In this document: piece by piece, positions 7,079-39,500 of the stretch | Position numbering within the stretch: position 1 is the stretch's first letter | Layout of the letters: every line of letters begins with the position of its first letter | DNA from: Natator depressus | Taxonomy: Eukaryota | Assembly: GCF_965152275.1 (NCBI RefSeq) | Contig: NW_027439781.1 | Coordinates: 1-39,704 of the forward strand | DNA: 39,704 nt | Direction of reading: 5' to 3' | Program-made: the position numbers and the translations under genes | Notes under the pieces: generated by a model | Database searches by the model: none | What the model was told of the DNA's origin: nothing | The model's input: only the letters and a program-made list of their open reading frames with translations

Positions 7079-7089
7079 GTACCCCAGGA

Positions 7090-10000: not shown

Positions 10001-11200
10001 GAGGGAAGGTGGCAGTGGAGGGAAGGAGGGAAGGTGGCAGTGGAGGGAAGGAGGGAAGGTGGCAGTGGAGGGAAGGAGGCAGTGGCAGTGGAGGGAAGGA
10101 GGCAAGGAGGCAGTGGAGGGATGGAGGGAAGGAGGCAGTGGCAGTGGAGGGAAGGAGGGATGGAGGCAGTGGAGGGAAGGAGGGATGGAGGCAGTGGCAG
10201 TGGAGGGATGGAGGCAGTGGAAGCGGAGGGAAGGAGGCAGTGGCAGCAGAGAGATGGAGGCAGCGGAGGGATGGAGGCAGTGGAATCGGAGGGATGGAGG
10301 CAGTGGAATCGGAGGGATGGAGGCAGTGGAAGCGGAGGGATGGAGGGAAGGCAGTGGAAGCGGAGGGATGGAGGCAGTGGCAGTGGAGGGATGGAGGCAG
10401 TGGCAGTGGAGGGATGGAGGCAGTGGCAGTGGAGGGATGGAGGGAAGGAGGCAGTGGGAGCGGAGGGAAGGAGGCAGTGGGAGCGGAGGGGTGGAGGGAA
10501 GGAGGCAGTGAAAGTGGAGGGGAGGAGGCAGTGAAAGTGGAGGGGAGGAGGCAGTGGCAGTGGAGGGATGGAGGGGAGGAGGCAGTGAAAGTGGAGGGGA
10601 GGAGGCAGTGGCAGTGGAGGGATGGAGGGGAGGAGGCAGTGAAAGTGGAGGGGAGGAGGCAGTGAAAGTGGAGGGGAGGAGGCAGTGGCAGTGCAGGGAT
10701 GGAGGGAAGGAGGCAGTGGGAGCGGAGGGAAGGAGGCAGTGGGAGCGGAGGGATGGAGGCAGTGGCAGTGGAAGCGGAGGGATGGAGGCAGTGGAAGCGG
10801 AGGGAAGGAGGCAGTGGCAGTGGAGGGATGGAGGGAAGGAGGCAGTGGCAGTGGAGGGTTGGAGGGAAGGAGGCAGTGGCAGTGGAGGGATGGAGGGAAG
10901 GAGGCAGTAGGAGCGGAGGGAAGGAGGCAGTGAGAGCGGAGGGAAGGAGGCAGTGGCAGTGGAGGGTTGGAGGGAAGGAGGCAGTGGAAGTGGAGGGTTG
11001 GAGGGAAGGAGGCAGTGGGAGCGGAGGGAAGGAGGGAAGGAGGCAGTGGAGGGAAGGAGGCAGTGGCAGTGGAGGGTTGGAGGGAAGGAGGCAGTGGCAG
11101 TGGAGGGAAGGAGGCAGTGGCAGTGGAGGGATGGAGGGAAGAAGGCAGTAGAAGCGGAGGGAAGGACGCAGTGGGAGCGGAGGGCTGCAGCCATGCACTG
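7090..11200 (+). repeat. 4.1-kb purine/G-rich minisatellite in TLCD3B intron 2. Units of roughly 27-33 bp (ggagggaaggaggcagtggcagtggagggatgg) with sub-variants.
   Basis: Continuous GGA/GGC-rich periodic sequence. It is the source of the 1351-aa and 1454-aa artefact ORFs in the track. Confidence 0.9.
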
Positions 11201-11999: not shown

Positions 12000-12260
12000 C
12001 CCCCAGCCTGGCCTGCTTCCCCTGGGCAGCCCGGCCTCACCCACCAGGGGGCGCTGTGGGGTGGGGGTGGGGCGCTTGCTATTGGGGGAGCTCCTGGCTA
12101 CCCCAACCTCAGCATCTCCCAGCAGGGGGCGCTGAGGGGAGGGGCAGGGTGCTGGCTGTGGGGGGAGCTCCTGGCTACTCCAGCCCGGCCTTGCCCAGCA
12201 GGGGGCGCTGTGGGGAGCAAGGCTGTGGTCTCCCTGTCTACGGTGCTGAAGGGCCTGGGA
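12000..12260. repeat. About 3 tandem copies of an 80-bp unit (ccagcagggggcgctg...gggggagctcctggctac).
   Basis: Direct periodicity. Confidence 0.6.
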
Positions 12261-12337
12261 GCTGGGCGGGTCTGTGGCTGCTTTGTTCCACACCGTGGAC
12301 AGGGCCCTTTCCGTGGGCTCCTTTATGAGACTCGGAA

Positions 12338-12830
12338 CTAGGACCCACTGTATGGTGGGGGAGGGCTGGAGCCAGGACTCCTGGGTTCTATTCCTAACTC
12401 TGCCACTGATCTCCTCTTCATGGGGAGCAGAGTGGGTAGGCTGGACAACGCCCCCTCCTGGCGCTGGGCAGCAGAATGCCCGGGAGGCTCCAGCCCCCTG
12501 CCGCCTGCACCAGCCCCTCCCAGTGTCGCTGGCATATTCACCTTCCTCCCCAGAGCTGAGCCGGAATTATCCCCCGCCCGCTCCTGAGCCCTCTCCTGGG
12601 AGCACAGATGGGGCCAGCGAGCTAATCCCCTCGGCCGCGGATCAGCCTGCCCCGCAGCTCTGGGAGGGGAGTGGGGTCTGGTGGTTAGAGCGAGGGAGGC
12701 TGGGAACCAGGACTCCTGGGTTCAACTGGCTCTGGAGGGGAGTGGGGTACAGTGGTTAGAGCAGGATTGGGCTGGAAGCCTGGACTCCTGGGTTCTATCC
12801 CGGCTTTATGAATGGGGTGCCCCCGCAGGC
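12338..12830. mobile_element. MIR/CORE-type tRNA-derived SINE head fragments (tggttagagc ... ggagccaggactcctgggttctattcctaactctgccactga), several partial copies.
   Basis: Similar to the MIR consensus GGAGCCAGACTGCCTGGGTTCGAATCCCGGCTCTGCCACT. Related fragments are at 5655-5740 and 33290-33412. Confidence 0.6.
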
Positions 12831-13029
12831 TGTGTTCCTACATGGACCCCCCCACAACACACTCCAGCTGACTGAGAGATGAGGGCTGGTTTCCATGGCA
12901 GCTGCACCCGCCCCGATCCCCACACTGCACCTGGAGCCTGCAGAGTCCCGAGCCTCTGACACAGCCACTCATGGGCCTGGGGTGGGGGTGTGAGGAAAGC
13001 ATCATGGGAAATCTTACCCCCCCCCCTTC

Positions 13030-13500
13030 CCCTCCGCATCATTGGGCTAGTGCCTCTCACTCCCGACCCGCAGCCCCCTGCTAGCCCAGCCCTGCCCCCC
13101 CCAGCTGTGCCGGTGCCCCTCACTCCCGACCCGCAGTCCCCTGCTAGCCCAGCCCTCAGCCCCTCCAGCCCTGCCGGTGCCCCTCACTCCCGACCCACAG
13201 CCCCCTGCTAGCCCAGCCCTCAGCCCCTCCAGCCCTGCCGGTGCCCCTCATTCCCGACCCGCAGCCCCCTGCCAGCCCAGCCCTGCCCCCCCCTGCCCTG
13301 CCGGTGCCCCTCACTCCCGACCCGCAGCCCCCTGCTAGCCCAGCCCTGCCCCCCCCCAGCTGTGCCGGTGCCCCTCACTCCCGACCTGCAGCCCCCTGCT
13401 AGCCCAGCCCTGCCGGTGCCCCTCACTCCCGACCCACAGCCCCCTGCTAGCCCAGCCCTGCCCCCCAGCTCTGCTGGTGCCCCTCACTCCCGACCCACAG
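13030..13500. repeat. Dispersed minisatellite family, array A. Core ctgccggtgcccctcactcccgacccgcagccccctgc, unit about 60 bp, about 8 copies.
   Basis: Direct periodicity. The same core in reverse complement occurs at 13680-13920. Confidence 0.8.
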
Positions 13501-14380: not shown

Positions 14381-14600
14381 GCACTGGCTGACGAGCGCCT
14401 ACACGGAGTTTGCGGTGCCCTACTTCATCTACGACATCTACGCCATGTTCCTCTGCCACTGGCACAGGTACCGGGTGAAGGGGCACGAGGCTGCGGGGCC
14501 CCGCTCGCTGCGCACCGCCACCCGCGCCTTCCTGCGCAAGGAGTTCCTCATGGTGCTGCACCACCTCTGCATGGTGCTGGTGTGCTTCCCCGTCTCCGTG
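14381..14600 (+). CDS. TLCD3B: TLCD3B exon 4. (Q)HWLTSAYTEFAVPYFIYDIYAMFLCHWHRYRVKGHEAAGPRSLRTATRAFLRKEFLMVLHHLCMVLVCFPVSV.
   Basis: Strong match to human HWLSSAYTQFAVPYFIYDIYAMFLCHWHKHQVKGH...KEFLMVLHHAAMVLVCFPLSV. Acceptor cttcccccag|G, donor GTG|GTGAGTGGG. Confidence 0.9.
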
Positions 14601-15560
14601 GTGAGTGGGCCCCGATAGCCGCAGGGGGCTGCACCCCCTCTGCATGGTGCTGGTGTGCTTCCCCGTCTCCGTGGTGAGTGGCCCCCGATAGCCGCAGGGG
14701 GGCCCCCCGATAGCCGCAGGGGGCTGCACCCCCTCTGCATGGTGCTGGTGTGCTTCCCCGTCTCCGTGGTGAGTGGCCCCCGATAGCCGCAGGGGGCTGC
14801 ACCCCCTCTGCATGGTGCTGGTGTGCTTCCCCGTCTCCGTGGTGAGTGGCCCCCGATAGCCGCAGGGGGGCCCCCCGATAGCCGCAGGGGGCTGCACCCC
14901 CTCTGCATGGTGCTGGTGTGCTTCCCCGTCTCCGTGGTGAGTGGGCCCCGATAGCCGCAGGGGGCTGCACCCCCTCTGCATGGTGCTGGTGTGCTTCCCC
15001 GTCTCCGTGGTGAGTGGGCCCCGATAGCCGCAGGGGGGCCCCTGATAGCCGCAGGGGGCTGCACCCCCTCTGCATGGTGCTGGTGGGCTTCCCCCTCTCC
15101 GTGGTGAGTGGGGCCCGATAGCCGCAGGGGGGCCCCTGATAGCCGCAGGGGGCTGCACCCCCTCTGCATGGTGCTGGTGGGCTTCCCCCTCTCCGTGGTG
15201 AGTGGGCCCCGATAGCCGCAGGGGGGCCCCCCGATAGCCGCAGGGGGCTGCACCCCCTCTGCATGGTGCTGGTGTGCTTCCCCGTCTCCGTGGTGAGTGG
15301 GCCCCGATAGCCGCAGGGGGCTGCACCCCCTCTGCATGGTGCTGGTGTGCTTCCCCGTCTCCGTGGTGAGTGGGCCCCGATAGCCGCAGGGGGGCCCCTG
15401 ATAGCCGCAGGGGGCTGCACCCCCTCTGCATGGTGCTGGTGGGCTTCCCCCTCTCCGTGGTGAGTGGGGCCCGATAGCCGCAGGGGGGCCCCTGATAGCC
15501 GCAGGGGGCTGCACCCCCTCTGCATGGTGCTGGTGGGCTTCCCCCTCTCCATGGTGAGTG
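14601..15560 (+). repeat. About 11 tandem copies (73 bp, or 94 bp with an insert) of the 3' end of TLCD3B exon 4 plus its donor (ctctgcatggtgctggtgtgcttccccgtctccgtg|gtgagtgggccccgatagccgcagggggctgcaccc). They fill almost all of intron 4.
   Basis: Direct. Each copy keeps a GTGAGTGG donor and a ...ccgcag|g acceptor-like site. Confidence 0.9.
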
Positions 15561-15700
15561 GGGCCCGAGATCCCCAGGAGGCCGTAAGAAGGCAAGGGGT
15601 GGGACCGAGCCACAGGAGGGAAGTGGGGGTCCTGAGCCCATGAGGGGGCAGGAGGGGGCTAGTTCCCACCAGCTGCCCCTCACCCCCCCTCTCTCCCCAG

Positions 15701-19318: not shown

Positions 19319-19450
19319 TCACTCGTGGTGCCCCGGGGAGGGCCTGGGCAGGACACCCAGCAGCCCCCCAGCCGTGGAGAAGAGGTTGATGGGGGAGGAG
19401 CCGTCGGTGATGAGGGCCGACTGGAGGCCCAGGCCCTGCAGCAGCTTCAC
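19319..19450 (-). CDS. MVP: MVP last coding exon. [43 protein letters not shown] followed by a stop.
   Basis: Matches human [33 protein letters not shown]. Acceptor ctgctccccccag|GTG. Confidence 0.9.
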
Positions 19451-19722
19451 CTGGGGGGAGCAGGGGGGTGGGTGAGTGAGTGGGACCCAGTCCCCAGCCC
19501 CTCCCCCACCCGTGTAAGCTCCACCCGTCCTGGGCCCCACCCGCAGAACCCACCAGCCCCTACTCCACCCACTCCAGCCCTACAGCCAGCTCCGCCCCCC
19601 AGCCCTAGCGCCACCTATGCCAGCACCAGTTTCCTCAGGTCCTGCCCCTAAGCCCCTCCCCCACATGCTCACCCAAGCCTAGCCCCGCCCCACCCTCCTC
19701 TAAGCCCCGCCCCCCGACCCAC

Positions 19723-19911
19723 CTGCAGCTCCGGCCCGGCCAGCGCGATGTCGCGCAGGGTCTCGGGCCCGATGGCTTCCGTCACCTGCTGGAACTTCTT
19801 CACCTCCACCTCGGCCAGCAGCCGGGCCCGCGCCGCCTCCTGCTCGCCCTGCGCCCGGGCGAAGCGCAGCTCCTGCTCCCGCGCCTGGCCCAGCCGGGCC
19901 AGCTCCGACTC
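19723..19911 (-). CDS. MVP: MVP exon. [63 protein letters not shown].
   Basis: Matches human [63 protein letters not shown]. Sites gcgcag| and CAG|GTGGGT. Confidence 0.9.
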
Positions 19912-20078
19912 CTGCGCCCGCCGGGGGGACGGGGGACAGGCTCAGTGCTGCCTGGGCCACGCCCCCTCCCCGGGCTCCGCCTCCCACCCCCGCGGGCCAC
20001 GCCCCCTCCCCGGGCTCCACCTCCCACCCCCGCGGGCCACGCCCCCTCCCCGGGCTCCCCCCAACCCCGCCCACTCAC

Positions 20079-20205
20079 CGTCTCAATGGCGGCTGCCTCC
20101 GCCTTCAGCTTGGCCTGTTCCACGGCCGCCTCGCCCGCGATCCGCGCCGCCTCCGCCTTGGACTGGGCCTCGGCCCGCGCCGCACCGGCGCTCTCCACTG
20201 CCGCG
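20079..20205 (-). CDS. MVP: MVP exon. (S)AAVESAGAARAEAQSKAEAARIAGEAAVEQAKLKAEAAAIET.
   Basis: Matches human [43 protein letters not shown]. Sites cccccccccag|C and ACG|GTGAGT. Confidence 0.9.
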
Positions 20206-20476
20206 CTGGGGGGGGGCCAGACAGGGTCACAGACCCACACATACGCCCCCCCGGTCTCCCAGAGGCCCCCCCCAGCCACTGATCCCCCAATTCTGCCCCC
20301 GGACTCCCCCGCTGCCCCAATCCCACTGCCGGCCGTGGACCTCCCCCCGATCCTGCCCCCTGCCGCTGACCGCCCCGCGACACCCTGCCCCCAGACTCCC
20401 CTGACCCCACCAGATCCCTCCCCTGGCAGCTGGCCACCCTTCCCCTGACCCCCCATCACCCCCCGGGTCCCCCAAC

Positions 20477-20593
20477 CTCAGTGCCTCCAGCTCCAGCAGC
20501 TCCTTCCGGGCCCGCTCAGCCTCCGCCTGGTCCAGGATTTTCTGCCGCTCCAGCCGCCCCCGGGCCTCCTGTTCCAGCCGCTCAGCCTCATGC
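20477..20593 (-). CDS. MVP: MVP exon. (R)[38 protein letters not shown].
   Basis: Matches human [38 protein letters not shown]. Sites tctcccccag|G and CTGAG|GTTGGG. Confidence 0.9.
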
Positions 20594-20669
20594 CTGGGGG
20601 AGACAGGCTGGGATGAGGGGGGCTGTGGGGCAGGGCTGGGGCGGGAGCAGGCCCCTGGGGAGCCTGTAC

Positions 20670-20881
20670 CTGGCGGCCGCCTCCTGGGAGTTGGTGGTGA
20701 TCTCGATGGCCAGCTGGACGCTCCTCTGCAGCGCGTCCCGCGTGCGCTGGTCCACCGGCTCCACGCTCTGGATGTCCACGCTGCTCACCACCAGCCCGTT
20801 CTGGGGGAAGCGCAGGCAGCTCCGCAGCTGCAGCTCCGTGTCGAAGCCAAACACAGCCGAGCAGATGATCCGGTTCGAGTT
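20670..20881 (-). CDS. MVP: MVP exon. [70 protein letters not shown].
   Basis: Matches human NSARIIRTAVFGFE...[47 protein letters not shown]. Sites tccccccag| and GCCAG|GTACAG. Confidence 0.9.
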
Positions 20882-21194
20882 CTGGGGGGAGCAGGGGATT
20901 GTGGGGCACTGGGGGGAGCGGCTGCAGCACCCCAGAACCCCCATATTCACCCTGGCAGGTACAACCGGGCAGCCAGACGTGCGGATGGCCCAGAAGGACG
21001 ATTCCAGGAACCGCAGACAATGGGTCCTGTTTGACCCGGGGAGAAGTGGCGGATGGGGGCTCAGTGGTACCCCAGTTCCAGATTGCACCCTGGGTAGGGC
21101 TGTGCCAGGAGGAGCAGGCCAGGGGGCTTGGGAAGGCGTGGTGGGGGAATGCCAGGGGGGCACGGGAAGGGGTGCAGAGGGGCCCCCCCCATAC

Positions 21195-21339
21195 CTTGTG
21201 GAAGTCGTCGAACGTGACGGAGGCCACGGCCCCACGGATGCGGGAGGCCAGTGCTTTGCAGGCATCACCCACGAAATCCGGGACGCTGAAGAGCCGGGAG
21301 AGCGCCGGGGGGTCAGGGGGCGACGGCACCTCAAAGTGC
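21195..21339 (-). CDS. MVP: MVP exon. (W)[48 protein letters not shown].
   Basis: Matches human HFEV...[35 protein letters not shown]. Sites tgtccccccag|G and AAG|GTATGG. Confidence 0.9.
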
Positions 21340-21639
21340 CTGGGGGGACAAGGCAGTTGGGGGGCTGGGGAACAGGCTTCCCCGGTCCCCCTCCCTGCAA
21401 CCTCCACCCCTCCCAGCCCCACCCCCCTGGGCAGAGGGGGCTGTAGGGCCGGCGCTGGGCCCAGGGGCAGAGCCCCAAGAGTAGCCTGGAGACCCTGAGA
21501 TTGGGGCAGTGCCTGGGCTCTGCAGGGCGTAAGCAGCAGGCTGGGGTGGGGGGTGCCCGACAGGGCCTGTGACACCCCCCTGCTGCCTCCTGCCCTTCCC
21601 CAATCATGGCCCCATCAGCCCCTCTCCCCAGCCCCTCAC

Positions 21640-21837
21640 CAGTTGTAGGCCAGCTGGAGCTGCAGCCGGGCATGGTCGGCCGTCTCGATGGTGACGATGT
21701 CGGCACAGAAGTCAGGGCCCAGCAGCAGGCAGAGTGAGCGCCGGGTGTGGGGGGCCTTGGGCCGCCCCCCTGACAAGCTCAGCACCGTGAACTGCTCGTC
21801 CGGGCCCAGCAGAACCAGCTCCGGGCCCAGCACCACC
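21640..21837 (-). CDS. MVP: MVP exon. (R)[65 protein letters not shown](W).
   Basis: Matches human [66 protein letters not shown]. Sites ccccgccag|G and AACTG|GTGAGG. Confidence 0.9.
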
Positions 21838-21992
21838 CTGCGGGGAGGGGAACATGAGCCCTACACGCCACGGGAGGGAGCCCCAGCGACCCCCAGCCCC
21901 GCTTCCCCTGGGACCCCCCTCCCTCCATGAGCTGCATCCAGCCCCCGACCCAAGTCCCCCTCCCACACACACAGCCACAAGCCCCTGCTCAC

Positions 21993-22231
21993 CTGGCCTG
22001 CCGCTCCCGGTAGTCGTACACCTGCACGGCTGCGTTGTGGGGCACCTGGTAACTCACCACCCGTGTCTTGTCGCGGGGGGGCCCCTCACCTCCCTGGGGG
22101 GGGGCCCCGGAACGGTCAGCCACGGGGTCCCGGCCCGAGGACAGCAGGGCCTCCACGTTGGGGGGCAGCTCCTTCTCCCAGAGCTCCTCGGCCTCCGTCA
22201 GCATGTAGGTGTGGCCGATCACCGCCCGCAC
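21993..22231 (-). CDS. MVP: MVP exon. [79 protein letters not shown](R).
   Basis: Matches human [44 protein letters not shown]...[27 protein letters not shown]. Sites tctcgccag| and GCCAG|GTGAGC. Confidence 0.9.
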
Positions 22232-22371
22232 CTGGCGAGAGGGGGGAGTCCATGCGGGGGCAGGGATATGGGGTACCAGGGGTCAGTGGGGCAGGCCAGG
22301 GGTCAGGGATATGGGGAATTAGGGGTCAGTGGGGCACTGGGGGGCAGGGATGGGGCCGGGGCCCTGCTCAC

Positions 22372-22530
22372 CTTGCCTGTCTTGATGTCGCGCACGTAGA
22401 TGCCCTCGTTCTCGCCCAGGGGGGTGGCCTGGCGCCGCTCCAACACCTCCACCTCCACCGGCGGCACGTACTCCAGGGGCCCCCGGATGAGCCAGCAGTC
22501 GCCCGGCTTCCGCTGCAGCCCACGGCCGCC
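22372..22530 (-). CDS. MVP: MVP exon. [53 protein letters not shown].
   Basis: Matches human [43 protein letters not shown]. Sites acaccctcag| and AAG|GTGAGC. Confidence 0.9.
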
Positions 22531-22539
22531 CTGAGGGTG

Positions 22540-22930
22540 TCGGGATCCCGGTGCCCCTCACTCCCGACCCGCAGCCCCCTGCCCCCCCCGCCGGTGCCCC
22601 TCACTCCCGACCCGCAGCCCCCTGCCCCCCCTGCCGGTGCCCCTCACTCCCCACCCGCAGCCCCCTGCCCCTCCTGCCGGTGCCCCTCACTCCCCACCCA
22701 CAGCCCCCTGCCCCCCCTGCCGGTGCCCCTCACTCCCCACCCACAGCCCCCTGCCCCCCCTGCCGGTGCCCCTCACTCCCCACCCACAGCCCCCTGCCCG
22801 CCCTGTGCCCCTCACTCCCCACCCGCAGCCCCCTGCCTCCCCCGCTCTGCCGGTGCCCCTCACTCCCCACCCGCAGCCCCCTGCCTCCCCCGCTCTGCCG
22901 GTGCCCCTCACTCCCGACCCGCAGCCCCCC
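22540..22930. repeat. Dispersed minisatellite family, array D (ccggtgcccctcactcccgacccgcagccccctgcccccc, unit about 45-50 bp, about 8 copies), in an MVP intron.
   Basis: Direct periodicity. Same core as the arrays at 13030-13920 and 17960-18300. Confidence 0.85.
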
Positions 22931-22956
22931 GCCAGCCCAGCCCTGGACTCCCCCAC

Positions 22957-23082
22957 CTCATCCGAGTCCTCCAGCTTGCTGAGTGCCCGCAGCAGCAGCC
23001 CTTCCTCCTCCGAGAGGATGTAGATGTCTTGGATCCCCTCCTTCAGAGACTCCCCTGGCTGCAGGAAGAACGACTTCTCCCC
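22957..23082 (-). CDS. MVP: MVP exon. [42 protein letters not shown].
   Basis: Matches human [44 protein letters not shown]. Sites ggtccag|GGG and GATGAG|GTGGGG. Confidence 0.9.
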
Positions 23083-23159
23083 CTGGACCAACGAAGGGGG
23101 AGGTCTGTGAGAATTTCCACGGCTACCCAAGAAATGTGGGGAGGGAGCGTAGGCATATA

Positions 23160-25300
23160 GTCTAGGTAATATGGTCATATCATTTACTGTGCATATAAAC
23201 TAGAAAATATGGCAAGATCATGCCTCAATGAATATTTTATTCCTTTTCCCACTTATTGCCAAAGAAACAAGGCAACACCTGCCCAGATAGTCTGAAAAAT
23301 ACAGTTAGACCCACCCGACTCCAAGGTGAGGAGCTGCTTTTTCTATTATTCTACGTGTAGCCTAGAAAATACAGTAACCGCTTGCCTATATTATAGGAAA
23401 TACGGTAACCCCCCTTCCACAATGGCCTGGTCAACCATCACCTTTAAAGTGGAAATACAGTAACATCTGCTCCTATACCCTGAGTAATATGGTACCCCCG
23501 TGCCGCCCCCAGCTGTAGCTGCTCCTATGACCTGGCAACAGACACTTCCCCCACCCATCTATAACTGCAGCTATAATCTGGTATATACGGTAGAAAATAA
23601 AGAAACAAAGACAGTAACAGAAGGCCACTAGCCGTCACCTTCAGCCCCCAACTCAAACCTCTCCAGCACACCATGGAGGATCTACAACCGATCCTGAGGG
23701 GCGACCCCTCGCTCTCACAGATCTTGGGAGACAGGCCAGTCCTTGCCTACAGACAGCCCCCCAACCTGAAGCAAATACTCACCAGCAACCACATACCACA
23801 CAACAGAACCACTAACCCAGGAACCTATCCTTGCAACAAAGCCCGTTGCCAACTGTGTCCACATATCTATTCAGGGGACACCATCACAGGGCCTAATACC
23901 ATCAGCCACACTATCAGAGACTCGTTCACCTGCACATCCACCAGTGTGATCTATGCCATCATGGGCCAGCAATGCCCCTCGGCCATGTACATTGGTCAAA
24001 CTGGACAGTCTCCACGTAAAAGAATAAATGGACACAAATCAGACGTCAAGAATTATAACATTCATAAGCCAGTCGGAGAACACTTCAATCTCTCTGGTCA
24101 CGCGATTACAGACCTAAAAGTGGCTATTCTTCAACAAAAAAACTTCAAAAACAGACTCCAGCAAGAGACTGCTGAATTGGAATTTATTTGCAAACTGGAT
24201 ACAATTAACTTAGGCTTGAATAGAGACTGGGAGTGGATGGGTCATTACACAAAGTAAAACTATTTCCCCATGTTTATCCCCCTCCCCTCACTGTTCCTCA
24301 GACGTTCTTGTCAACTGCTGGAAATGGCCCACCTTGATTATCACGACAAAAGGTTTCTTTCTCTGCTGCTGGTGATAGCTCACCTCACCTGATCACTCTC
24401 CTTACAGTCTGTGTGGTCACACCCCTTGTTTCATGTTCTCTGTGTATATAAAATCTCCCCACTCTATTTTCCACTGAACGTGTCCGATGAAGTGAGCTGT
24501 AGCTCACAAAAGCTCATGGTCAAATAAATGGGTTAGTCTCCAAGGTGCCACAAGTCCTCCTGTTCTTTTTGCGAATACAGACTAACACGGCTGCTACTCT
24601 GAAGCCTGTATATACGGTAGCCAACTCCTAGGTTAACCATACCAGTCTATCCACATCTGTCTCTTTATTTCTACTAATTATGGTAGACAGCCATTCTGGG
24701 CCCCATTCAGCTACCGTACTTACTAGGATACAGGAGGCTACAACAAAGAGGTAATTAGAAGGGTAACTATGAAATACCATAGAGGCACATCATTACCATA
24801 ATTACTAGCATAAATGTGCCCCACAGCTATATCCAGAGCTACTGTAATGTCAGATAAACAAAACTACCGTATATGCTAGAATAAACTTGTACAAACAATA
24901 TTTGGTTACCCTATGTACTAGGATAAACATGCCCCTACAAGATATAGTTACCATATATAATGGTGTAAATACACCCAATGAGATACACATCATTACCATA
25001 GTTACTGACACAAGCCCCTCCCCAACATAAAATGGACTAGCATAAATATTCCTCACATACAGTTGTACTATATTCACTAGAATATAAGTGACCCTTCAAT
25101 CTAAAGTGCCATGGTACTTAGTAGAATACATATGCCCCACAGCACTACCGCATTTAGTGGAATAAATGCGCCCCGGGAGCTATGCAGCCTTACCAGAGGC
25201 AGGGGAACAAAGCCTTCCCTGAACACAGACACAGTACTACGGGTGCTACCGTATTCCCTAAAGCAAAGGTGGCCCCGGAGTTTACACTAGTACCATATTG
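23160..25300. mobile_element. AT-rich interspersed-repeat block in an MVP intron. It contains a Penelope-like element (PLE) fragment: a GIY-YIG endonuclease ORF at 23673-24257, flanked by inverted arrays of a degenerate 50-60-bp unit. The left array carries aatacggtaacc-type motifs and the right array carries gttaccgtat-type motifs.
   Basis: The ORF has a CCHH-like zinc finger (CNKARCQLCPH) followed by a GIY-YIG motif (SVIYAIMGQQCPSAMYIGQTGQSPRKRINGHKSD...KPVGEHF). Coupling of reverse transcriptase with a GIY-YIG endonuclease defines PLEs, which is established knowledge. The reverse-transcriptase part is absent here, so the element is 5'-truncated. Confidence 0.55.
23673..24257 (+). pseudogene. 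5'-truncated PLE ORF encoding the C-terminal GIY-YIG endonuclease domain only. It is unlikely to be functional on its own.
   Basis: 194-aa ORF from the track. The motifs are given in the mobile-element feature above. Confidence 0.5.
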
Positions 25301-25325
25301 TCATGTGTACACATGGCCGCTATAC

Positions 25326-25562
25326 CTTGATCACCTTCTCCTGGCCCAGCTGGGGCTTGCCGTTGGGCCCCACGGGGTCGCACACCACGCAGTACTGGCG
25401 GCTGCTCAGCGTGGTGATGTCCACAATGCCCACCACCTCCTCGTAGACGTTGGGGATGTAGGCCTCACTCTGAGCGAGTGTCACCAGCCACTCCTCCCCA
25501 GTCCGGCGCACCGTGTCCTCCGGGTCCCGGAAGGTCTTGGTGGCGCGGAGATGCAGCGCCCT
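25326..25562 (-). CDS. MVP: MVP exon. [79 protein letters not shown].
   Basis: Matches human [79 protein letters not shown]. Sites ccccatag| and AAG|GTATAG. Confidence 0.9.
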
Positions 25563-26117
25563 CTATGGGGGAAAGGGGAACACGGCCATCAGCATGAGGG
25601 GAGCCAGGTCCTGGCTATTCCCTCCTTCCCCAAGGCCCCCCACCTCCACCCCCATGTCCACCTACTCTCCCCTCCCCCAGATCCCCCTCTTCCCCAGGGT
25701 CCCCCACATCTTCTCCTTGTCCATGGGGTCAACCCCACACTACTCCTTCCCCCCCAGGTCACATCCAGCTTCCCCCAATTTCCTCCCCACCACATGCCCC
25801 CAAGGATCAGAGCCATTTCACACCCTCCCACTCCCTCCCCACCCTGGACTCCCCCATCCCCTCCACTCCCAGACAGCACCATGCCCCAATCTCATCCCTC
25901 CCCACCACCACTCCCCTTAGGGGCAGGGCTGGGAACCCTCTAACCTCAGTCCCGCCCCCTCAGCCAATAAGAAGGCCACCTCACAGCAAGGGAGCTCCTT
26001 CCCCGGGTTGGAAACCCAGCCCCACCCTGTCCTGCCCCCCACCCGGGTGCAGATTGCACACCTGCCCCCCGCCACGGTCACACCGACTGCCACCAGCACC
26101 CCTTGCCCCCCCCTCAC

Positions 26118-26212
26118 CTTCTCCGTCAGCACAAAAGCATCCACAATGTCAACCACCTCCTCAAACACGCCAGGAAGATACGCACCCACTCGCTTCACCA
26201 GCCACTCCTCAC
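26118..26212 (-). CDS. MVP: MVP exon. (G)[31 protein letters not shown].
   Basis: Matches human [31 protein letters not shown]. Sites ccacccag|GT and AAG|GTGAGG. Confidence 0.9.
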
Positions 26213-26239
26213 CTGGGTGGGGGGAGAGAGACATGGCAA

Positions 26240-26680
26240 CAGATCAGGAGTGAGGGGGACCGGCAGAGCTGGGGGGACAGGCCCAGGGCTGGGGGGGCTG
26301 CGGGTCGGGAGTGAGGGGCACCGGCGGAGCTGCGGGGGGGGGGGCAGGGCTGGGCTAGCAGGGGCTGTAGGTCGGGAGCGAGGGGCACCGGCAGAGCGGA
26401 CGGGGGGACGGGCCCAGGGCGGTGGGGCGGGAGCGAGGGGCGCCGGCAGACCGGATGGGGGGACGGGCCCAGGGTGGCGGGGCGGGAGCGAGGGGCGCCG
26501 GCAGAGCGGACGGGGGGACGGGCCCAGGGCGGGAGCGAGGGGCGCCGGCAGAGCGGACGGGGGGACGGGCCCAGGGCTGGGGGGCGGGAGCGAGGGGCGC
26601 TGGCAGAGCGGACGGGGGGACAGGCCCAGGGCTGGGGGGCGGGAGCGAGGGGCACCGGCAGAGCGGACGGGGGGCGGTAC
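26240..26680. repeat. Dispersed minisatellite family, array E. This is a diverged variant (cgggagcgaggggcgccggcagagcggacggggggacgggcccagggc, unit about 60 bp) whose first units are the canonical gggctgcgggtcgggagtgaggggcaccggc. It lies in an MVP intron.
   Basis: Direct periodicity. Confidence 0.8.
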
Positions 26681-26812
26681 CTGTGACCCGCCGGGTCCCC
26701 TCCCGGTCCGTACACTCCTTGCGGGCCCGGAGCCGGATGGCCTGGTTGTGGCGGATGACAGTGGCTTGGATGATTTCCACCACCTCCACCTCGGTCCGCG
26801 GGATGTGGGTGC
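26681..26812 (-). CDS. MVP: MVP exon. (G)[43 protein letters not shown](G).
   Basis: Matches human [44 protein letters not shown]. Sites tcccgcag|GC and ACAG|GTACCG. Confidence 0.9.
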
Positions 26813-26894
26813 CTGCGGGAGGCTGGCGTTAGCCGCGGACGAGCCCGCCCGGCCAGGCTCTGCCCAGGCCCCCAGCCCAGCCCAGCCCACTCAC

Positions 26895-27018
26895 CTGGCC
26901 CCTCAAAGAGGAACTCGTCCCCGGCCATGTACTTCCCACCCTGATCGTCCTCAAAATCCAGCAGGGCCTTGAGGTGCAGGGCGGTGTTCGGCAGGACCAC
27001 CTGCAGGGCCGTGATTCC
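26895..27018 (-). CDS. MVP: MVP exon. [41 protein letters not shown](G).
   Basis: Matches human [41 protein letters not shown]. Sites tctcgcccccag| and CCAG|GTGAGT. Confidence 0.9.
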
Positions 27019-27092
27019 CTGGGGGCGAGAGGGGGCTCAGGGCACGGCTCAGGGCACGCTGGCTCCGGGCCGGGCCTGGGGCTGGGCGTTAC

Positions 27093-27288
27093 CTGCTGGA
27101 TCTCCTCCCCCGGGTAGAGGGGGAAGGGGGGCTGGCTGAGCCGGATCTCCAGGTCCGCGTGCCGCAGCAGCGCCTGCCCCGAGGCATCGAACTGCACCCC
27201 GGCGCCCGGCGCCCGGACCACGGGGTGCAGCACTGTGCAGTAGTGCCGGGGGGGCACCGTCACCATCTTGGCAGGGGGGAAGACGACC
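27093..27288 (-). CDS. MVP: MVP exon. (R)[65 protein letters not shown].
   Basis: Matches human [66 protein letters not shown]. Sites cctgccccgcag|G and CAGCAG|GTAACG. Confidence 0.9.
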
Positions 27289-27459
27289 CTGCGGGGCAGG
27301 GGGAACACGTCAGGGGGTGCTGGGAACCGACCCCCGTGACCCTGGCAGCCCCCCACGGCCCCTCCCCCTGGTCTCCCCCCACCCCGTCCCCTCCCCAGCA
27401 GCCCAACCTCTCTCCCCGCAGCCCCTTGGCCCTGCCCGCCCCAGCTCCTGCGCCCTCAC

Positions 27460-27581
27460 CGCTCATTGTCCTGGCGGATGTAGGTCTGCGGCCCCACCTC
27501 GACGCGGGTCACATTGGAGTTCTGGTCCAGCACGTGGATGTAGTGGTGGGGGGGGATGCGGATGATGGATTCCTCGGCCAT
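27460..27581 (-). CDS. MVP: MVP first coding exon. ATG at 27581-27579. [40 protein letters not shown](R). The exon starts at an acceptor at 27586, so there is a non-coding exon 1 upstream.
   Basis: Matches human [42 protein letters not shown]. Acceptor tgccctgccccatag|CTGACATGG. Donor GAGCG|GTGAGG. Confidence 0.9.
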
Positions 27582-30199: not shown

Positions 30200-30460
30200 A
30201 CCGGCGCATGCGCAGTTCTCTCCCATGTCCCATTGTGCGCATGCGTATATCGCCAGTCCTTTTTTCCTTTCGTTCGCGTCGGCCAAGCGACTCTACTTTC
30301 CCTTAATGCGCATGCTCCGCTGCTTTTCCCTCCCCCCCACCCAGAATTGCGCACTGAGCGTGCACGTTTCTTCCAGTCCCTGATGCGCATGCGCTTTTTG
30401 TTAGTCTCCTCCCTATGACGTCACAGACGCCGCCATCTTGTCCTACCCCTCATGCGCACG
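30200..30460. promoter_or_regulatory. KIF22: KIF22 proximal promoter. Four GCGCATGCGC-type palindromes (NRF1-like) at about 30204, 30236, 30307 and 30385. CRE TGACGTCA at 30416-30423. YY1-like GCCGCCATCTTG at 30429-30440. Inverted CCAAT (ctgattggcc) at about 30527 and a GC box at about 30553.
   Basis: Motifs read directly from the sequence. Their assignment to transcription-factor families is established knowledge, but function is inferred. Confidence 0.5.
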
Positions 30461-30783
30461 CGCCTTCCGCACCTTGTCGCTCCCGCGTCGCTGGGTGCGT
30501 GCGCGGCGCCCCACCCGGCGGGCGCCCTGATTGGCCGGTGTCTGGACAGGGGCGGGGTTAGCGCCAAATACAAACGGCCGCGGGCCGCGCGAGCTGCAGC
30601 GGCCGCCGGACCGGAGAGAGAGCAGGGGCTCGGTGGGCGCGAGGGGCCGGACGGCGGGGAAGGGAGTGGGGGGGCCCGAGGGGGCGGGGCTGAGAGCAGC
30701 TTGTGGGGCGGGTCCCCCGGTCGGGGCAGCAGGTTCCCCCCCACAGCCCGGGCGGGGCGCCCCCTCCCCCCGCGGCGGGCACC

Positions 30784-30938
30784 ATGCCGCCCCAGCAGCG
30801 AGCCGGCCCCCCGGCCCGGGTGCGCGTGTGCGTCCGCCTGCGGCCCTGCAGCCAGGGGGACCCCTGCGTCCGCGGCCTGGACTCCCGCTCCCTGCAGATC
30901 GTCAGCTGGAGGAACAGGAAGGAGACCATGGAGTACCA
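30784..30938 (+). CDS. KIF22: KIF22 exon 1. ATG at 30784, Kozak caccATGc. [51 protein letters not shown](Q).
   Basis: Matches human ...PPPARVRVAVRLRPFVDGT...[26 protein letters not shown]. Donor TACCA|GTAAGT. Confidence 0.85.
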
Positions 30939-31020
30939 GTAAGTGGGGGGGCCCCTGTGCTGAGACACCCCCCCCCCCGACATCACAGCCCTTCCCCCAC
31001 CCCCCTGCTCTGTCCCCCAG

Positions 31021-31149
31021 GTTCGACACCTTCTATGGGGACCAAGCCACCCCAGCATGACGTCTACGCCGGCTCCGTGCAGCCTGTCCTGCGCCACCTG
31101 CTGGAGGGGCAGAACGCCAGCGTGCTGGCCTACGGGCCCACCGGTGCTG
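31021..31149 (+). CDS. KIF22: KIF22 exon 2. (Q)[42 protein letters not shown](G). It contains an apparent 1-bp insertion (gccaCCCCag) that shifts the frame.
   Basis: Matches human [43 protein letters not shown]. The FDTFYG and QHDVYAG segments are in different frames. The exon is 129 nt where frame continuity needs 128. Confidence 0.8.
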
Positions 31150-31230
31150 GTGAGCACGGGGGCGGCCGGGCTGATCCCGGGGAAGGGGGCTGTGGAAGCC
31201 GAGGAACTGATTTCTTGCCTCCCACCCCAG

Positions 31231-31391
31231 GTAAGACGCACACCATGCTGGGCAGCCCAGAACAGCCAGGTGTGATCCCACGGGCGCTGCGGGATGTCCT
31301 GCAGATGACGCGGGAGGCGAGCTGCTCACCCAGGGGTGAGGAGTGGGACTACTCAGTCTCCATGTCGTACCTGGAGATCTACCAGGAGAAG
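31231..31391 (+). CDS. KIF22: KIF22 exon 3. (G)[53 protein letters not shown]. It ends with a GC donor (AAG|GCAAGT).
   Basis: Matches human [31 protein letters not shown]...[11 protein letters not shown]. Acceptor cccaccccag|GT. No GT donor gives the required phase. Confidence 0.85.
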
Positions 31392-32542
31392 GCAAGTATG
31401 GGGGTGGGGTGAGGACAGTACTGGGGGGAAGAACTGTCCAGCCAGCTGCTGGACCCACTGTTGCAGATCCACAGGATGGGTACTAAGACCCCAGCTTTGG
31501 AGCAGTCTCTGGGAGGCCCTCTTCATTGAGCCAGACTCCCAAGGGGTTCCACTCTTCCTCCAGGGGAAGCCACGGGCCTCACCACCTCCTTAGGCCGGAG
31601 GAGCCTGCAGCCCCCCCACTTCCCACGGAGAGCTCTGATCAGTGAGTCCCATTGAGACCCCAGGGGAGACTTGTACAATCTCCGGCAGTATCTGCAGGGC
31701 CACGCTGCCAGTGCTGGCAACAACAGGTTCATTAGCTGGCTGGACAGTGTGGCAAATCCTTGGTTAGCCAGGGAAGGAAGTTACAGCCCAGCCCATCCTG
31801 GTCAGCCCAAGCCCTGTGCCTCTGACCTCCTGTTGGCCCGGTTCAGGTGTGTCCCCAAAGCCCGCAGAAGCCAACCTTTAACCAGCAGCCCCCCCCGGGT
31901 CCTGCGTTCTCCACCTGGGCGAATGCTGCTCGGTCCCTGAGGAGAGGTGGGTTGGCCATGGTCCTGGTCGCTAGGTATCAAAGCCCAGGTGACAGGGATT
32001 GCCATTGTCGTCTTATAAACCCCACTGATGGGACCTAAGGCTCCAGGCAGCTTGGAGACATTCACAGCTGTAGGTTTGCCTACCCTGGGAGCTGACAGAC
32101 CTTCTCCCCATTGCGTGATGGTGCAGCATAGAGGGGAAACTGTGACACACAGGCTTCATCAAAATATGACACAAAATTCCCACTTTATCCCACCTACCAG
32201 TCTGAGTGGGGTTGGCAGGTGTATGTGGGAGTGAACCAGGAGGGAGATGGGCTAGTAGGCTCTTGCTGATCTGAGATGGGCTGATGGGGGATTCCCTCTT
32301 GGTCGGGGGTGGGGAGAGAGAAACTGAGACACCAGGGGACAGGTGGGTGATGCATGTGGAGAAGTGCACTGGCTGGGGCTGGTGAGATGATGGGGTGGGG
32401 AGAATCTTGGCAGTCCAGGATAAGGGTGGGAGGGTGCTGGGAGCCCTGCCTGACTGGGATGGGGGGGGCAGGGGTGGGGCTGCTGGGAACACTGGTAGGG
32501 GGCAGAGCAGGATCCTTCCTCTGATAATCCCTCCAACTCCAG

Positions 32543-32983
32543 GTGCTGGACCTGCTGGAGCCATCCCAGCAGGACCTGCCGATCCGGGAGGACCGGGACC
32601 GGAACATCCTGATCCCGGGGCTGACTGAGCGAGAGCTGGGAGGCTTCGGGGACTTCGAGCGGTACTTCCTGCCAGCTAGCCGCAACCGCACTGTAGCCTC
32701 CACTCAGCTCAACGACCGCTCAAGCCGCAGCCACGCCGTGCTGCTGGTGCGGGTGGCGCGGACCCAGCAGGCGCCCCCCCACCGCCGCCGCACGGCCAAG
32801 CTCTGCCTCATTGACCTGGCTGGCTCTGAGGACAACCGGCGCACTGGCAACCGTGGCCTGCGGCTCAAAGAGAGCGGTGCCATCAATGCCTCCCTGCACG
32901 TGCTCAGCAAGGTGGTGGATGCCCTCAACCAGGGGCTGCCCCGTGTGCCATACCGCGACAGCAAGCTCACCCGCCTGCTGCAG
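32543..32983 (+). CDS. KIF22: KIF22 exon 4 (motor domain). [147 protein letters not shown].
   Basis: Matches human [71 protein letters not shown]...[62 protein letters not shown]. Sites ctccag| and CAG|GTGCGC. Confidence 0.95.
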
Positions 32984-33412: not shown

Positions 33413-33566
33413 GACTCCCTGGGGGGCTCAGCTCACAGTGTGATCATTGCGAATGTCGCCCCCGAGCAACACTTCTATTTTGACACGCTGAGCACGCTGA
33501 ACTTTGCTGCCAAGTCCAAGCAGGTGGTGAACCGGCCCTTCACCCAGGAGACACTGCAGGCCCCAG
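33413..33566 (+). CDS. KIF22: KIF22 exon 5. [51 protein letters not shown]. Its acceptor lies inside a MIR-like SINE fragment.
   Basis: Matches human [50 protein letters not shown]. Sites ctgggttctctctctctccccag| and CCAG|GTAAGG. Confidence 0.9.
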
Positions 33567-33674: not shown

Positions 33675-33774
33675 CTGCACGCAAGAGACCTCATGAGGAT
33701 CCTGGAGCCAGCAGTGCCAGCCCAGGGGCCAAGAGTCCTCACAAGGAGGAACCCCCCGAGGCCAAGCCGCTCAG
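33675..33774 (+). CDS. KIF22: KIF22 exon 6. (A)ARKRPHEDPGASSASPGAKSPHKEEPPEAKPL(S).
   Basis: Sites ttctcttcccacag| and CTCAG|GTGAGG. The phase links exons 5 and 7. This is the low-complexity linker region of Kid. Confidence 0.75.
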
Positions 33775-33860: not shown

Positions 33861-34035
33861 CTCCCTGCTGCCCCTGGAGCAGCTGGACCCAAGGCTGGTG
33901 CAGCGGCTGCTGGGCCTGGAGCAGCTGGAGAAGCAGCAGGGGGGTGCCGGGCAGAGGCTGCCGCTGCTCAGCACCCCCCGGCGAGAGCGGGTGGCCCTGC
34001 TGCGCCAGCTGGAGGAGACACGCAGCGAGCTGCAG
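33861..34035 (+). CDS. KIF22: KIF22 exon 7. (S)SLLPLEQLDPRLVQRLLGLEQLEKQQGGAGQRLPLLSTPRRERVALLRQLEETRSELQ.
   Basis: Matches human [53 protein letters not shown]. Sites ctcccccaag| and CAG|GTGGGT. Confidence 0.8.
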
Positions 34036-34344: not shown

Positions 34345-34477
34345 AAGCTGAAGGAGAGGCAGAAGGAGCTAGAAGCTGTGGCACTGCTGGACAACGCCTG
34401 TCAGCCCAAGCCCCTGCACAACAGCAAAGCCCCCCCCAGGGCCCGCAAACAGGCTGTGGTGCTGCCCCTGCAGCAAG
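34345..34477 (+). CDS. KIF22: KIF22 exon 8. KLKERQKELEAVALLDNACQPKPLHNSKAPPRARKQAVVLPLQQ(G).
   Basis: Matches human KTKQKELEAKMLAQ...[22 protein letters not shown]. Sites cccctacag| and CAAG|GTAAGG. Confidence 0.8.
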
Positions 34478-34539: not shown

Positions 34540-34845
34540 CGAAACCCGGGTGTCCTGGCTCCCAGTGCCCCCCTGCTCTAACCACTGGACCCCACTCCCC
34601 TTCCAGAGCTGGGATGGAACCCGGGTGTCCTGGCTCCCAGTGCCCCCCTGCTCTAACCACTGGACCCCACTCCCCTCCCAGAGCCGGGATGGAACCCGGG
34701 TGTCCTGGCTCCCAGTGCCCCCCCTGCTCTAACCACTGGACCCCACTCCCCTCCCAGAGCCGGGATGGAACCCGGGTGTCCTGGCTCCCAGTGCCCCCCC
34801 TGCTCTAACCACTGGACCCCACTCCCCTTCCAGAGCTGGGATGGA
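34540..34845 (-). repeat. Four tandem copies of a 65-bp unit derived from the MIR-like SINE head (- orientation: ggagtggggtccagtggttagagcaggggggcactgggagccaggacacccgggttc) in KIF22 intron 8.
   Basis: Direct periodicity. The unit is homologous to the SINE heads at 12690-12810 and 33290-33400. Confidence 0.8.
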
Positions 34846-34895
34846 ACCGGGTGTCCTGGCTCCTAGCCCCCCTAACCCTGCCCCCTGCTCTGCAG

Positions 34896-34966
34896 TGCAC
34901 ACCCCCCTTGGGAAGCAGGCCACACCCAGTGGAGATGAAGGGGTCCTGGTCATACAGAGGAAGCAG
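34896..34966 (+). CDS. KIF22: KIF22 exon 9. (V)HTPLGKQATPSGDEGVLVIQRKQ.
   Basis: Sites ccccctgctctgcag| and CAG|GTGAGA. The phase links exons 8 and 10. Confidence 0.7.
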
Positions 34967-35205: not shown

Positions 35206-35412
35206 GGCCAGGCCGATGGGCTGGGGGCTGAGAACCAGGCTCCACCCTGGGAGCTGATGCTGCGCCCTGACCTGCTGGCCCGGAGCCGGGAGAACCTGGT
35301 GGTGCTGCTCAACCAGGGCAGTGCCAAGGAGCTGCGCGCCCTGCACCGCATCGGGGACAAGAAAGCCCAGCTCATCATGGCCTGGAGACAGCTCCACGGG
35401 CCCTTCACCCAG
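35206..35412 (+). CDS. KIF22: KIF22 exon 10. [69 protein letters not shown].
   Basis: Matches human ...[54 protein letters not shown]. Sites ccatgtctccctcccag| and CAG|GTACCT. Confidence 0.9.
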
Positions 35413-35497: not shown

Positions 35498-35557
35498 GTG
35501 GAGGACCTTCAGAAGGTGGAGGGGATGACAGCCAAACAAGTGGCCTCTTTTCTGAAA
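35498..35557 (+). CDS. KIF22: KIF22 exon 11. [20 protein letters not shown].
   Basis: Matches human [20 protein letters not shown]. Sites ctctctcgcag| and AAA|GTGAGT. Confidence 0.9.
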
Positions 35558-35896: not shown

Positions 35897-35950
35897 GCCA
35901 ACCTGCTGAGCGCCCTGGGCCATGTCTCGCCCGCGCCCCCCGCTCAATAA
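35897..35950 (+). CDS. KIF22: KIF22 last exon. ANLLSALGHVSPAPPAQ followed by a stop (TAA at 35948-35950).
   Basis: Matches human ANILGLAAGQRCGAS then stop. Acceptor ctgctctcccccag|. Confidence 0.85.
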   Translation, partial: ANLLSALGHVSPAPPAQ

Positions 35951-36899: not shown

Positions 36900-39500
36900 C
36901 CGCGCCGTCCCCCTCACCCGCCGTGACCCCTCCCGTCACAGGAACCCCTCCTCCAGCGCGTGACCCTCCCCCGCCGGGACCCCTCCCCCACCGCGTGACC
37001 CCTCCCCCGCCGGGACCCCTCCCCTCACAGAGACCCCTCCCCCACCGCGTGACCCCTCCCCCACCGGGACCCCTCCCCTCACAGAGACCCCTCCCCCACC
37101 GCGTGACCCTCCCCCGCCAGGACCCCTCCCCTCCCCCACTGCGTGACCCCTCACCCGCCGTGACCCCTCCCGTCACAGGAACCCCTCCCCCACCGCGTGA
37201 CCCTCCCCCGCCGGGACCCCTCCCCCACCGCGTGACCCCTCCCCCGCCGGGACCCCTCCCCTCACAGAGACCCCTCCCCCACCGCGTGACCCCTCCCCCA
37301 CCGGGACCCCTCCCCTCACAGAGACCCCTCCCCCACCGCGTGACCCTCCCCCGCCAGGACCCCTCCCCTCCCCCACTGCGTGACCCCTCACCCGCCGTGA
37401 CCCCTCCCGTCACAGGAACCCCTCCCCCACCGCGTGACCCTCCCCTCACAGAGACCTCTCCCCGCCGGGACCCCTCCCCCACCGCATGACCCCTCCCCGC
37501 CAGGACCCCTCCCCTCACAGAGACCCCTCCCCCACCGCGTGACCCTCCCCCGCCAGGACCCCTCCCCTCACAGAGACCCCTCCCCCACCGCCTGACCCTC
37601 CCCCGCCGGGACCCCTCCCTTCACAGAGACCCCTCCTCCACCCCGTGACTCTCCCCCGCCGGGACCCCTCCCCTCCCCCACTGCGTGACCCCTCTGACCC
37701 CTCCCGTCACAGGAACCCCTCCCCCACCGTGTGACCCTCCCCCGCCGGGACCCCTCCCCTCCCCCACTGCGTGACCCCTCACCCGCCGTGACCCCTCCCG
37801 TCACAGGTACCCCTCCCCCACCGTGTGACCCTCCCCCACTGCGCGACCCCTCCCCTCACAGAAACCCCTCCCCCACCGTGTGACCCTCCCTGCCGGGACC
37901 CCTCCCCCACTGCGTGACCCCTCCCCCGCCGGGACCCCTTCCTCACAGAAACCCCTCCCCTGCCGCATGACCCTCCCCCCCCACTGCGCTACCCCTCCCC
38001 CGCCGGGACCCCTCCCCTCACAGAAACCCCTCCCCCACCGTGTGACCCCGCCGGGACCCCTTCCCTCACAGAAACCCCTCCCCCACCGGGACCCCTCCCT
38101 CACAGAAAACCCTTCCCCCTCCGCGTGACCCTCCCCTCACAGGTGATCCTCCCCTGCCGGGACCCCTCCCCTCACAGGGACCCCTCCCCCACCGCGTGAC
38201 CCTCCCCCACTGTGTGACTCTCCCCCGCCGGGACCTTTCCCCTCACAGAGACCCCTCCCCCGCCGGGACCTTTCCCCTCACAGAGACCCCTCCCCCGCCG
38301 GGGACCCTCCCCTCACAGAGACCCCTCCCCTCACAGAAACCCCTCCCCCACCGTGTGACCATCCCCCTGCCGGAACCCCTCCCCTCACTGGAACCCCTCC
38401 CCTCACTGGATTACCCTCCCCTCAGCGGGACCCCTCCCCTCACAGGGACCCCTCCCCCACCAAGTGACCATCCCCTCATAGAAACCCCTCCCTGACCGTG
38501 TAACCCTCTGCCGCCGGGACCCCTCCCCTCACAGGAACCCCTCCCCCACCGTGTGACCCTCCCCTCACAGGAACCCATTTCTCCCCTCGCTGGGACCCCT
38601 TCCCTCATAGAAACCTCTTGCCGACCATGTGATCCTCCCGTCGCCGGGACCCCTCCCCTCATAGAAACCTCTCGCCGACCATGTGATCCTCCCCCTCACA
38701 GGAACCCATTTCTCCCCTCGCCGGGACCACTCCCCTCACAGAAACCCCTCCCCCACTGTGTGACCCTCCCCTCACAGAGACCCCCTCCCCCACCATGTGA
38801 CCTTCTCACCTACTGTGACCCCTCCCATCACAGGGACCCTTCCCCCACCGTGTGACCCCCTCCCCCACCATGTGACCCTTCCCTCACAAGAACCCCTCCC
38901 CCACTGTGTGACCCTCCTCTTGCAGGAACCCCTCCCCCACTATGTGACCCTCCCATCACAGGGACCCCTCTCCTCACAGGAACCCTGCTCCCAGTGTGTG
39001 GTACTCGCCTTACAGGGACCCCTCCCCCATCATGTGACCCCTCCCCCACCACCCTCCTCTCACAGCCACCTCTCCCTCTCCGTGTGACCCTCCCCTTACA
39101 GGGACCCCTCTCCCAATCTGTGACCCCTCACTTTGCAGGGAACCCTTCCCCCATCATGTGACCCCTCCCTCACCATCCTCCCCTCACAGGGACCCCTCCC
39201 CCATCATGTTACCACATCGCCTCATAGGAACCCCTCCCCAACCAGCGCGTGACCCTCCCTTCAGAGGAACCCCTCCCAAACTGCGTGACCTCTCCCCCAC
39301 CACCTTCCCCTCTCAGAGACCCTTCCTCCTCCACCCTATGGCCCCACCCCTCACAGAGACTCTCCCCCACTGCACTCCTCCCCCACTCTGTGGCCCCTCC
39401 CCTCACAGAGAGACCCTCTCCTCGTGACCCCACTCTTCAGAGAGAACCCCTCCCCTACCCTTCTGCTCTTTCACCCCATGACCCCTTCCTAGCCCTGTGA
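36900..39500 (+). repeat. 2.6-kb CT-rich minisatellite (units of about 20-35 bp such as gacccctcccctcacagagacccctcccccaccgcgtgaccctcccccgccgg). Higher-order 237-bp periodicity is visible (36936-37154 repeats at 37173-37391).
   Basis: Direct. Identical 72-aa artefact ORFs at 36936..37154 and 37173..37391 confirm the higher-order repeat. Confidence 0.9.

Follow-up and report, generated by a model that had tools for sequence, protein, structure and literature searches.

The one-base frameshift in KIF22 of the flatback sea turtle assembly is most likely a homopolymer consensus error

KIF22/Kid of other vertebrates, a kinesin-10, combines an N-terminal motor with a C-terminal helix-hairpin-helix domain. 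In turtles, the gene belongs to a conserved MVP(-)/KIF22(+)/MAZ(+) neighbourhood, and the locus described here shares both the domain order and the neighbours. In vertebrate assemblies, false indels and missing sequence are documented to concentrate in GC-rich 5'-proximal exons (Kim et al. 2022, Genome Biol 23:204, PMC9516821). In the cases reported there (e.g. zebra finch PCDH17), a conserved gene is intact apart from one single-base indel in a GC-rich 5' coding exon, and its annotation is distorted. KIF22 of the flatback sea turtle, Natator depressus, is similar in all these respects. However, the published cases, which reads confirmed, come from assemblies of an older kind (Sanger, Illumina or CLR), whereas Natator KIF22 comes from a HiFi/hifiasm assembly and is known from the assembly sequence.

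We analysed a 39,704-nucleotide stretch of Natator DNA (the window). It belongs to an unplaced contig of 85,035 bp and carries MVP (minus strand), KIF22 (plus strand) and the start of MAZ. The assembly was made by hifiasm in Hi-C mode from PacBio Revio HiFi reads, and its reported QV is 65-70 (PMC12448945). GC content is 60-75% across most of the window, which is crowded with GC-rich minisatellites. It is 70% at 30701-31400; an earlier note on this DNA had called the region around KIF22 exon 2 GC-rich.

We built a gene model by tblastn with turtle KIF22 proteins followed by splice-site inspection, and obtained 12 coding exons between 30784 and 35950, all on the plus strand. Exon 1 (30784-30938, 155 nt) starts with the ATG at 30784 and ends with GAG TAC CA in phase 2, before the donor gtaagt. 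Exon 2 (31021-31149) lies between the acceptor cccccag and the donor gtgagc. It is entered in phase 2 and left in phase 1, which requires 128 nt, but it measures 129 nt as written. Exon 3 (31231-31391) encodes GKTHTMLG...IYQEK and is followed by a GC-AG intron (GC donor at 31392-31393, AAG/gcaagt). Exons 4-7 (32543-32983, 33413-33566, 33675-33774 and 33861-34035) have AG acceptors and GT donors and are intact, and so are exons 8-12 (34345-34477, 34896-34966, 35206-35412, 35498-35557 and 35897-35950, the last including the TAA stop). The earlier note had described the 11 exons other than exon 2 as intact with good splice sites. Intact they are, and the acceptors are AG throughout, but the donors are GT with one exception: intron 3 has a GC donor, which is common to Platysternon, Chelonoidis and Eretmochelys. 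The gene occupies the orthologous position. MVP lies upstream on the minus strand, as in other turtles, and the sequence downstream of KIF22 in Caretta, Eretmochelys and Chelonoidis, where a MAZ-like zinc-finger gene is found, aligns with the window at 35.7-39.7 kb. A processed pseudogene is ruled out by the twelve exons with introns in syntenic position.

The surplus base of exon 2 lies in a run of four C at 31050-31053, and deletion of any one of these C restores the frame. The site reads AAGCCACCCCAGCATGACG in the CCCC form, as written, and AAGCCACCCAGCATGACG is its counterpart. In the incoming frame, translation meets a TGA at 31058-31060, directly after ...DQATPA, giving a 64-residue product without P-loop; this product matched no Pfam family. 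Kinesin sequence continues 3' of the site, where 33 codons in the next frame join exon 3 (GKTHTMLG...) correctly. The CDS of the 12-exon model is 1,840 nt long (3n+1) as written; with one C removed it is 1,839 nt long and forms an uninterrupted 612-aa ORF. What the earlier note had reported for exon 2 (an extra C in gccaCCCCag, 129 nt where the flanking phases need 128, a TGA right behind DQATPA and a kinesin homology split over two frames) was thus borne out.

The corrected product is a complete kinesin. It matches the Pfam family Kinesin (PF00225) over residues 35-333 (E = 3.7e-97), with a full motor including the P-loop GPTGAGKT, and its C-terminus matches the helix-hairpin-helix family HHH_3 (PF12836) over residues 539-590 (E = 5.6e-12). 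Its best protein matches are KIF22 of turtles: identity is 91% to the Gopherus and Chelonoidis proteins, 99% to the partial Eretmochelys protein and 73% to Pongo over the motor. By contrast, the window KIF22 as written is truncated at codon 64, unlike KIF22/Kid of other vertebrates. An exact-sequence look-up showed that the model with one C deleted is identical over all 612 residues to XP_074797727.1, which bears the title 'LOW QUALITY PROTEIN: kinesin-like protein KIF22 [Natator depressus]'. Because the corrected product is identical to the RefSeq protein and has the full motor domain, its resemblance to KIF22 is not due to chance. NCBI uses the LOW QUALITY PROTEIN label for a model that has been repaired against its own genome sequence. 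If the label carries this usual meaning here, the frameshift is already known to the NCBI annotators. The RefSeq record, which does not differ in sequence from our corrected model, is silent on whether the extra base is an error or a variant. The finding is in any case an ordinary one, already flagged in RefSeq.

We compared the window with the KIF22 loci of three Caretta caretta assemblies, two Eretmochelys records, Platysternon and Chelonoidis. In the exon 2 alignment, only the window reads CCCC: the three Caretta assemblies, the Eretmochelys chromosome copy, Platysternon and Chelonoidis all read CCC, and the turtle proteins all read ATQ(H/Q)D across the site. The indel is a change in the length of a mononucleotide run, which is C3 in six orthologous sequences and C4 in the window. 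Over the 12 exons (1,840 coding nt), the extra C is the sole indel relative to Caretta, while substitutions number 56-57. The pairwise dN/dS of the repaired window CDS versus Caretta is 0.30 overall and 0.19 for the motor domain. No further lesion of KIF22 was found in the 12 exons, at the splice sites, among indels versus Caretta or by dN/dS. The lesion thus stands alone, as expected of an artefact, and the rest of the gene is intact and under purifying selection.

These data bear on whether KIF22 has been lost in the flatback lineage, in which case the frameshift would be a fixed disabling mutation. Such a loss would fit the ORF as written, which stops after 64 codons, before the P-loop. However, a pseudogene should carry several disabling mutations or show relaxed constraint. 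KIF22 carries one lesion, its 12 exons and splice sites are intact, and its dN/dS of 0.19-0.30, a pairwise measure that is blind to very recent relaxation, is lowest in the motor (0.19). Moreover, an intact second copy of the gene is present on the contig (see below), and KIF22 has been kept in all other sea turtles. Pseudogenisation of KIF22 in Natator is therefore highly improbable.

The frame could in principle be restored during expression, by programmed +1 ribosomal frameshifting near GCA UGA C (..DQATPADVY..), by transcriptional slippage on the C run or by alternative splicing. In favor of recoding, a +1 shift at the stop codon would alter two residues only (QH to PA). However, the orthologues are in frame with CCC, which leaves no conserved shift site, and the 106 nt starting at the site are no more stably folded than shuffled sequences (z = +0.47). 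Antizyme-type shifts use the motif UCC UGA U, and the motif at the KIF22 site differs. With neither a conserved shift site nor a stimulatory fold, we rejected programmed +1 frameshifting of the antizyme type. Rescue by splicing fared no better: the AGs upstream of QHD (31045-31046 and 31054-31055) are in the wrong phase and conserved residues flank the site (..DQAT/QHD..). Because these residues abut the site and the AG phases are wrong, splicing cannot mend the frame without loss of conserved motor sequence. We also rejected a start at the downstream ATG (31035, MGTKPPQHD...), which would delete the first ~60 motor residues and whose model is absent from the protein collection. Restoration of the frame in expression by any of these routes is scarcely credible.

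The MVP-KIF22 block occurs twice on the 85,035-bp contig, which may reflect a true duplication, two haplotypes or an artefact of assembly. The block in the window will be called copy A; the second block, copy B, lies outside the window and is known from its annotated proteins. The KIF22 of copy B (XP_074797729.1 / CAM5072696.1, 612 aa) is intact and not flagged, and its run at the exon 2 site is deduced to be C3, as in the orthologues. The only residue that differs between the two KIF22 proteins is Ser359 of copy A (codon AGC at 33710-33712, plus strand), which is Gly in copy B and in other sea turtles. An intact KIF22 is present on the contig whether the extra C is an error or real.

We used the MVP (major vault protein) gene of the window as an internal control for sequence quality. 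It spans 19319-27581 on the minus strand, with 16 coding exons and an intact 849-aa ORF identical to XP_074797730.1. Its 2,550 coding nt have a GC content on a par with KIF22, and we found no error in them. The MVP of copy B (CAM5072695.1, 566 aa) is identical to the window MVP over its first 506 residues and out of frame thereafter. Deletion of one C from the C6 run in exon 10 of the window MVP (21749-21754, minus strand; G6 on the plus strand) reproduced the frameshifted tail of CAM5072695.1 exactly. The corresponding C6-to-C5 change in copy B is read back from the protein. Copy A thus combines an intact MVP with a KIF22 that has one C too many, whereas copy B combines an intact KIF22 with an MVP that has one C too few. 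Over ~3.4 kb of comparable coding sequence, the two copies differ by two homopolymer frameshifts versus one substitution. Between real alleles or young paralogues, one would expect mostly substitutions, with few frameshifts in conserved genes. The ratio found here, two frameshifts to one substitution, resembles that left by long-read consensus errors.

Two KIF22 and two MVP models on one 85-kb contig are also what one would see if the extra C were real and confined to one of two KIF22 sequences. The affected sequence would then be a decaying tandem duplicate, or the contig would hold two haplotypes end to end, one of them with a heterozygous loss-of-function allele. The substitution at residue 359 supports this possibility: Ser versus Gly looks genuine, so that the copies are more than one sequence plus noise, and they could truly differ in the extra C as well. 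The high overall QV of HiFi assemblies and the error-free window MVP argue in the same direction. A heterozygous null would moreover be tolerable if Kif22-null mice are partly viable. Ohsugi and colleagues reportedly found in 2008 that about half of the Kid/Kif22-null mouse embryos die early and that the survivors are viable. Judged by this viability, the 'essential mitotic kinesin' of the earlier note is an overstatement as to 'essential', although the identification as the kinesin KIF22 stands. On the other side, a real lesion in KIF22 would need the second, independent homopolymer frameshift, in MVP of copy B, to be real too, with two frameshifts to one substitution. A single MVP-KIF22-MAZ block is present in the three Caretta assemblies, KIF22 shows no further signs of decay, and indel noise is evident in the same exons of sister assemblies (see below). 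We consider a real lesion in one copy or haplotype unlikely. A very young tandem MVP-KIF22 duplication undergoing reciprocal decay (of KIF22 in copy A and of MVP in copy B), with its resolution caught near the start, would be very unlikely. Were the extra base real, it would mark either a loss-of-function allele that is tolerated or a mitotic kinesin duplicate in decay, a case of modest interest.

The Eretmochelys imbricata records of KIF22 come from the same project and the same technology as the Natator sequence. On the chromosome-scale record OZ223916.1, five single-base indels fall within ~300 nt in exons 1-2 and none in exons 3-12, and the annotated protein wanders through wrong frames. 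These indels are found at 4855-5223 of the retrieved locus. On the unplaced scaffold CBCUCG010000017.1, a 200-N gap replaces exons 1-3, exons 9, 10 and 12 each contain a 1-nt insertion, and the RefSeq model is LOW QUALITY and partial. In the retrieved locus of this scaffold the gap is at 9207-9406 and the exon insertions are within 12104-13248; CORO1A-like and BOLA-like genes, not MVP, lie upstream of the gap. As in Natator, the Eretmochelys lesions are single-base indels in exons that are otherwise 97-100% identical to the window. Unlike Natator, Eretmochelys has CCC at the exon 2 site, and its lesions lie elsewhere and number several per copy. The annotation of the locus is also disturbed in other sea turtles: MVP is labelled LOW QUALITY in Lepidochelys kempii, and in Caretta one annotation has a truncated MVP and one source flags KIF22 as LOW QUALITY. 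Other apparent indel errors, as expected if the extra C is an artefact, are thus found both in the contig (MVP of copy B) and in equivalent assemblies (the five plus three indels and the N-gap of Eretmochelys).

We conclude that a consensus error in a homopolymer, from sequencing or assembly, is the most likely source of the extra C, with a probability of about 80%. A C3 run at 31050-31053 would have been overcalled by one base, and the overcall would have survived into the contig consensus, in a stretch of 70% GC that is rich in minisatellites and assembles poorly. The true gene almost certainly reads GCC ACC CAG CAT GAC (..ATQHD..) and encodes a normal 612-aa kinesin-10. A homopolymer assembly error had been the first choice of the earlier note. 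It is supported, indirectly, by CCC in every orthologue examined and by the extra C being the sole CDS indel versus Caretta, and it is further backed by the intact second copy, the MVP frameshift of that copy, the indels of the sister assemblies and the LOW QUALITY label. The sequence context also favours an error, as the KIF22 CDS contains 30 runs of at least four C or G. Some facts speak against an error. HiFi homopolymer errors would usually be expected in runs longer than four bases. Errors are not rampant in the window copy, since the equally GC-rich coding sequence of MVP is free of them. The Natator assembly is, furthermore, HiFi-based with a reported QV of 65-70 (PMC12448945).

The KIF22 lesions of Natator and Eretmochelys resemble noise in the consensus, in GC-rich sequence that is difficult to assemble; in Caretta, the locus is ~0.7 Mb from a chromosome end. 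The frameshift matters mainly as a quality-control point. Gene-loss scans of sea-turtle genomes would score the KIF22 of Natator, and that of Eretmochelys too, as inactivated, and the high genome-wide QV reported for these HiFi assemblies is no guarantee of accuracy on small unplaced contigs such as this one. One extra base can also yield a chimeric ORF in automated annotation. The ENA protein CAM5072693.1 (723 aa; 30455-31149 of the window, plus strand) starts from an upstream ATG that is not in frame (MRTRLPHLV...), passes through exon 1 in a wrong frame and reaches the true KIF22 frame only 3' of the extra C. The extra base is what produced this chimera, an artefact of annotation.

Exon 1 also varies in length among turtles. 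In the window and in Caretta, it is without 24 nt (eight codons, ..SLAEPRRA..) at 30784-30830, a gap that is in frame. These eight codons are present in Platysternon, Chelonoidis, Gopherus and Dermochelys and absent from Cheloniid sea turtles.

Self-BLAST of the window detected tandem arrays only, and no segmental duplication inside the window. At 1-19 kb, a search with a CDIPT sequence gave no match, and the long ORFs found there are repeat-derived. A purine-rich 4-kb minisatellite occupies 7087-11184, with units of ~23, 31, 40 and 54 nt (e.g. TGGAGGGATGGAGGCAGTGGCAG), a GC skew of ~+0.7 and an AT skew of ~+0.5. Several of its frames are open for >1,000 codons, which looks like an effect of the repeat rather than coding sequence. 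A second tandem array, at 14546-15582, is built of 73/95/168-nt units that are 95-100% identical, each holding an exon-like piece with a donor-like end, GTGGTGAGTGG (…CTCTGCATGGTGCTGGTGTGCTTCCCCGTCTCCGTG/gtgagtgg). The 3' end of the window is filled by a C-rich tandem array of 18/35/53-nt units at 36910-39050 (CCCCTCCCCTCACCGGGA and similar), which includes an exact repeat of a 237-nt stretch (36964-37143 = 37201-37380). All three forward frames of this array are open and would encode Pro/Thr/Ser-rich 'peptides'. Alignment with other turtle loci places it downstream of KIF22, where those loci have a MAZ-like zinc-finger gene. Finally, intron 8 of KIF22 contains a tandem repeat at 34543-34863 (4.3 copies of 76 nt, 97% matches), and the LOW QUALITY RefSeq model of Eretmochelys takes part of the equivalent repeat as coding (..ELGWNPGVLAPSPANPAPCSA..).
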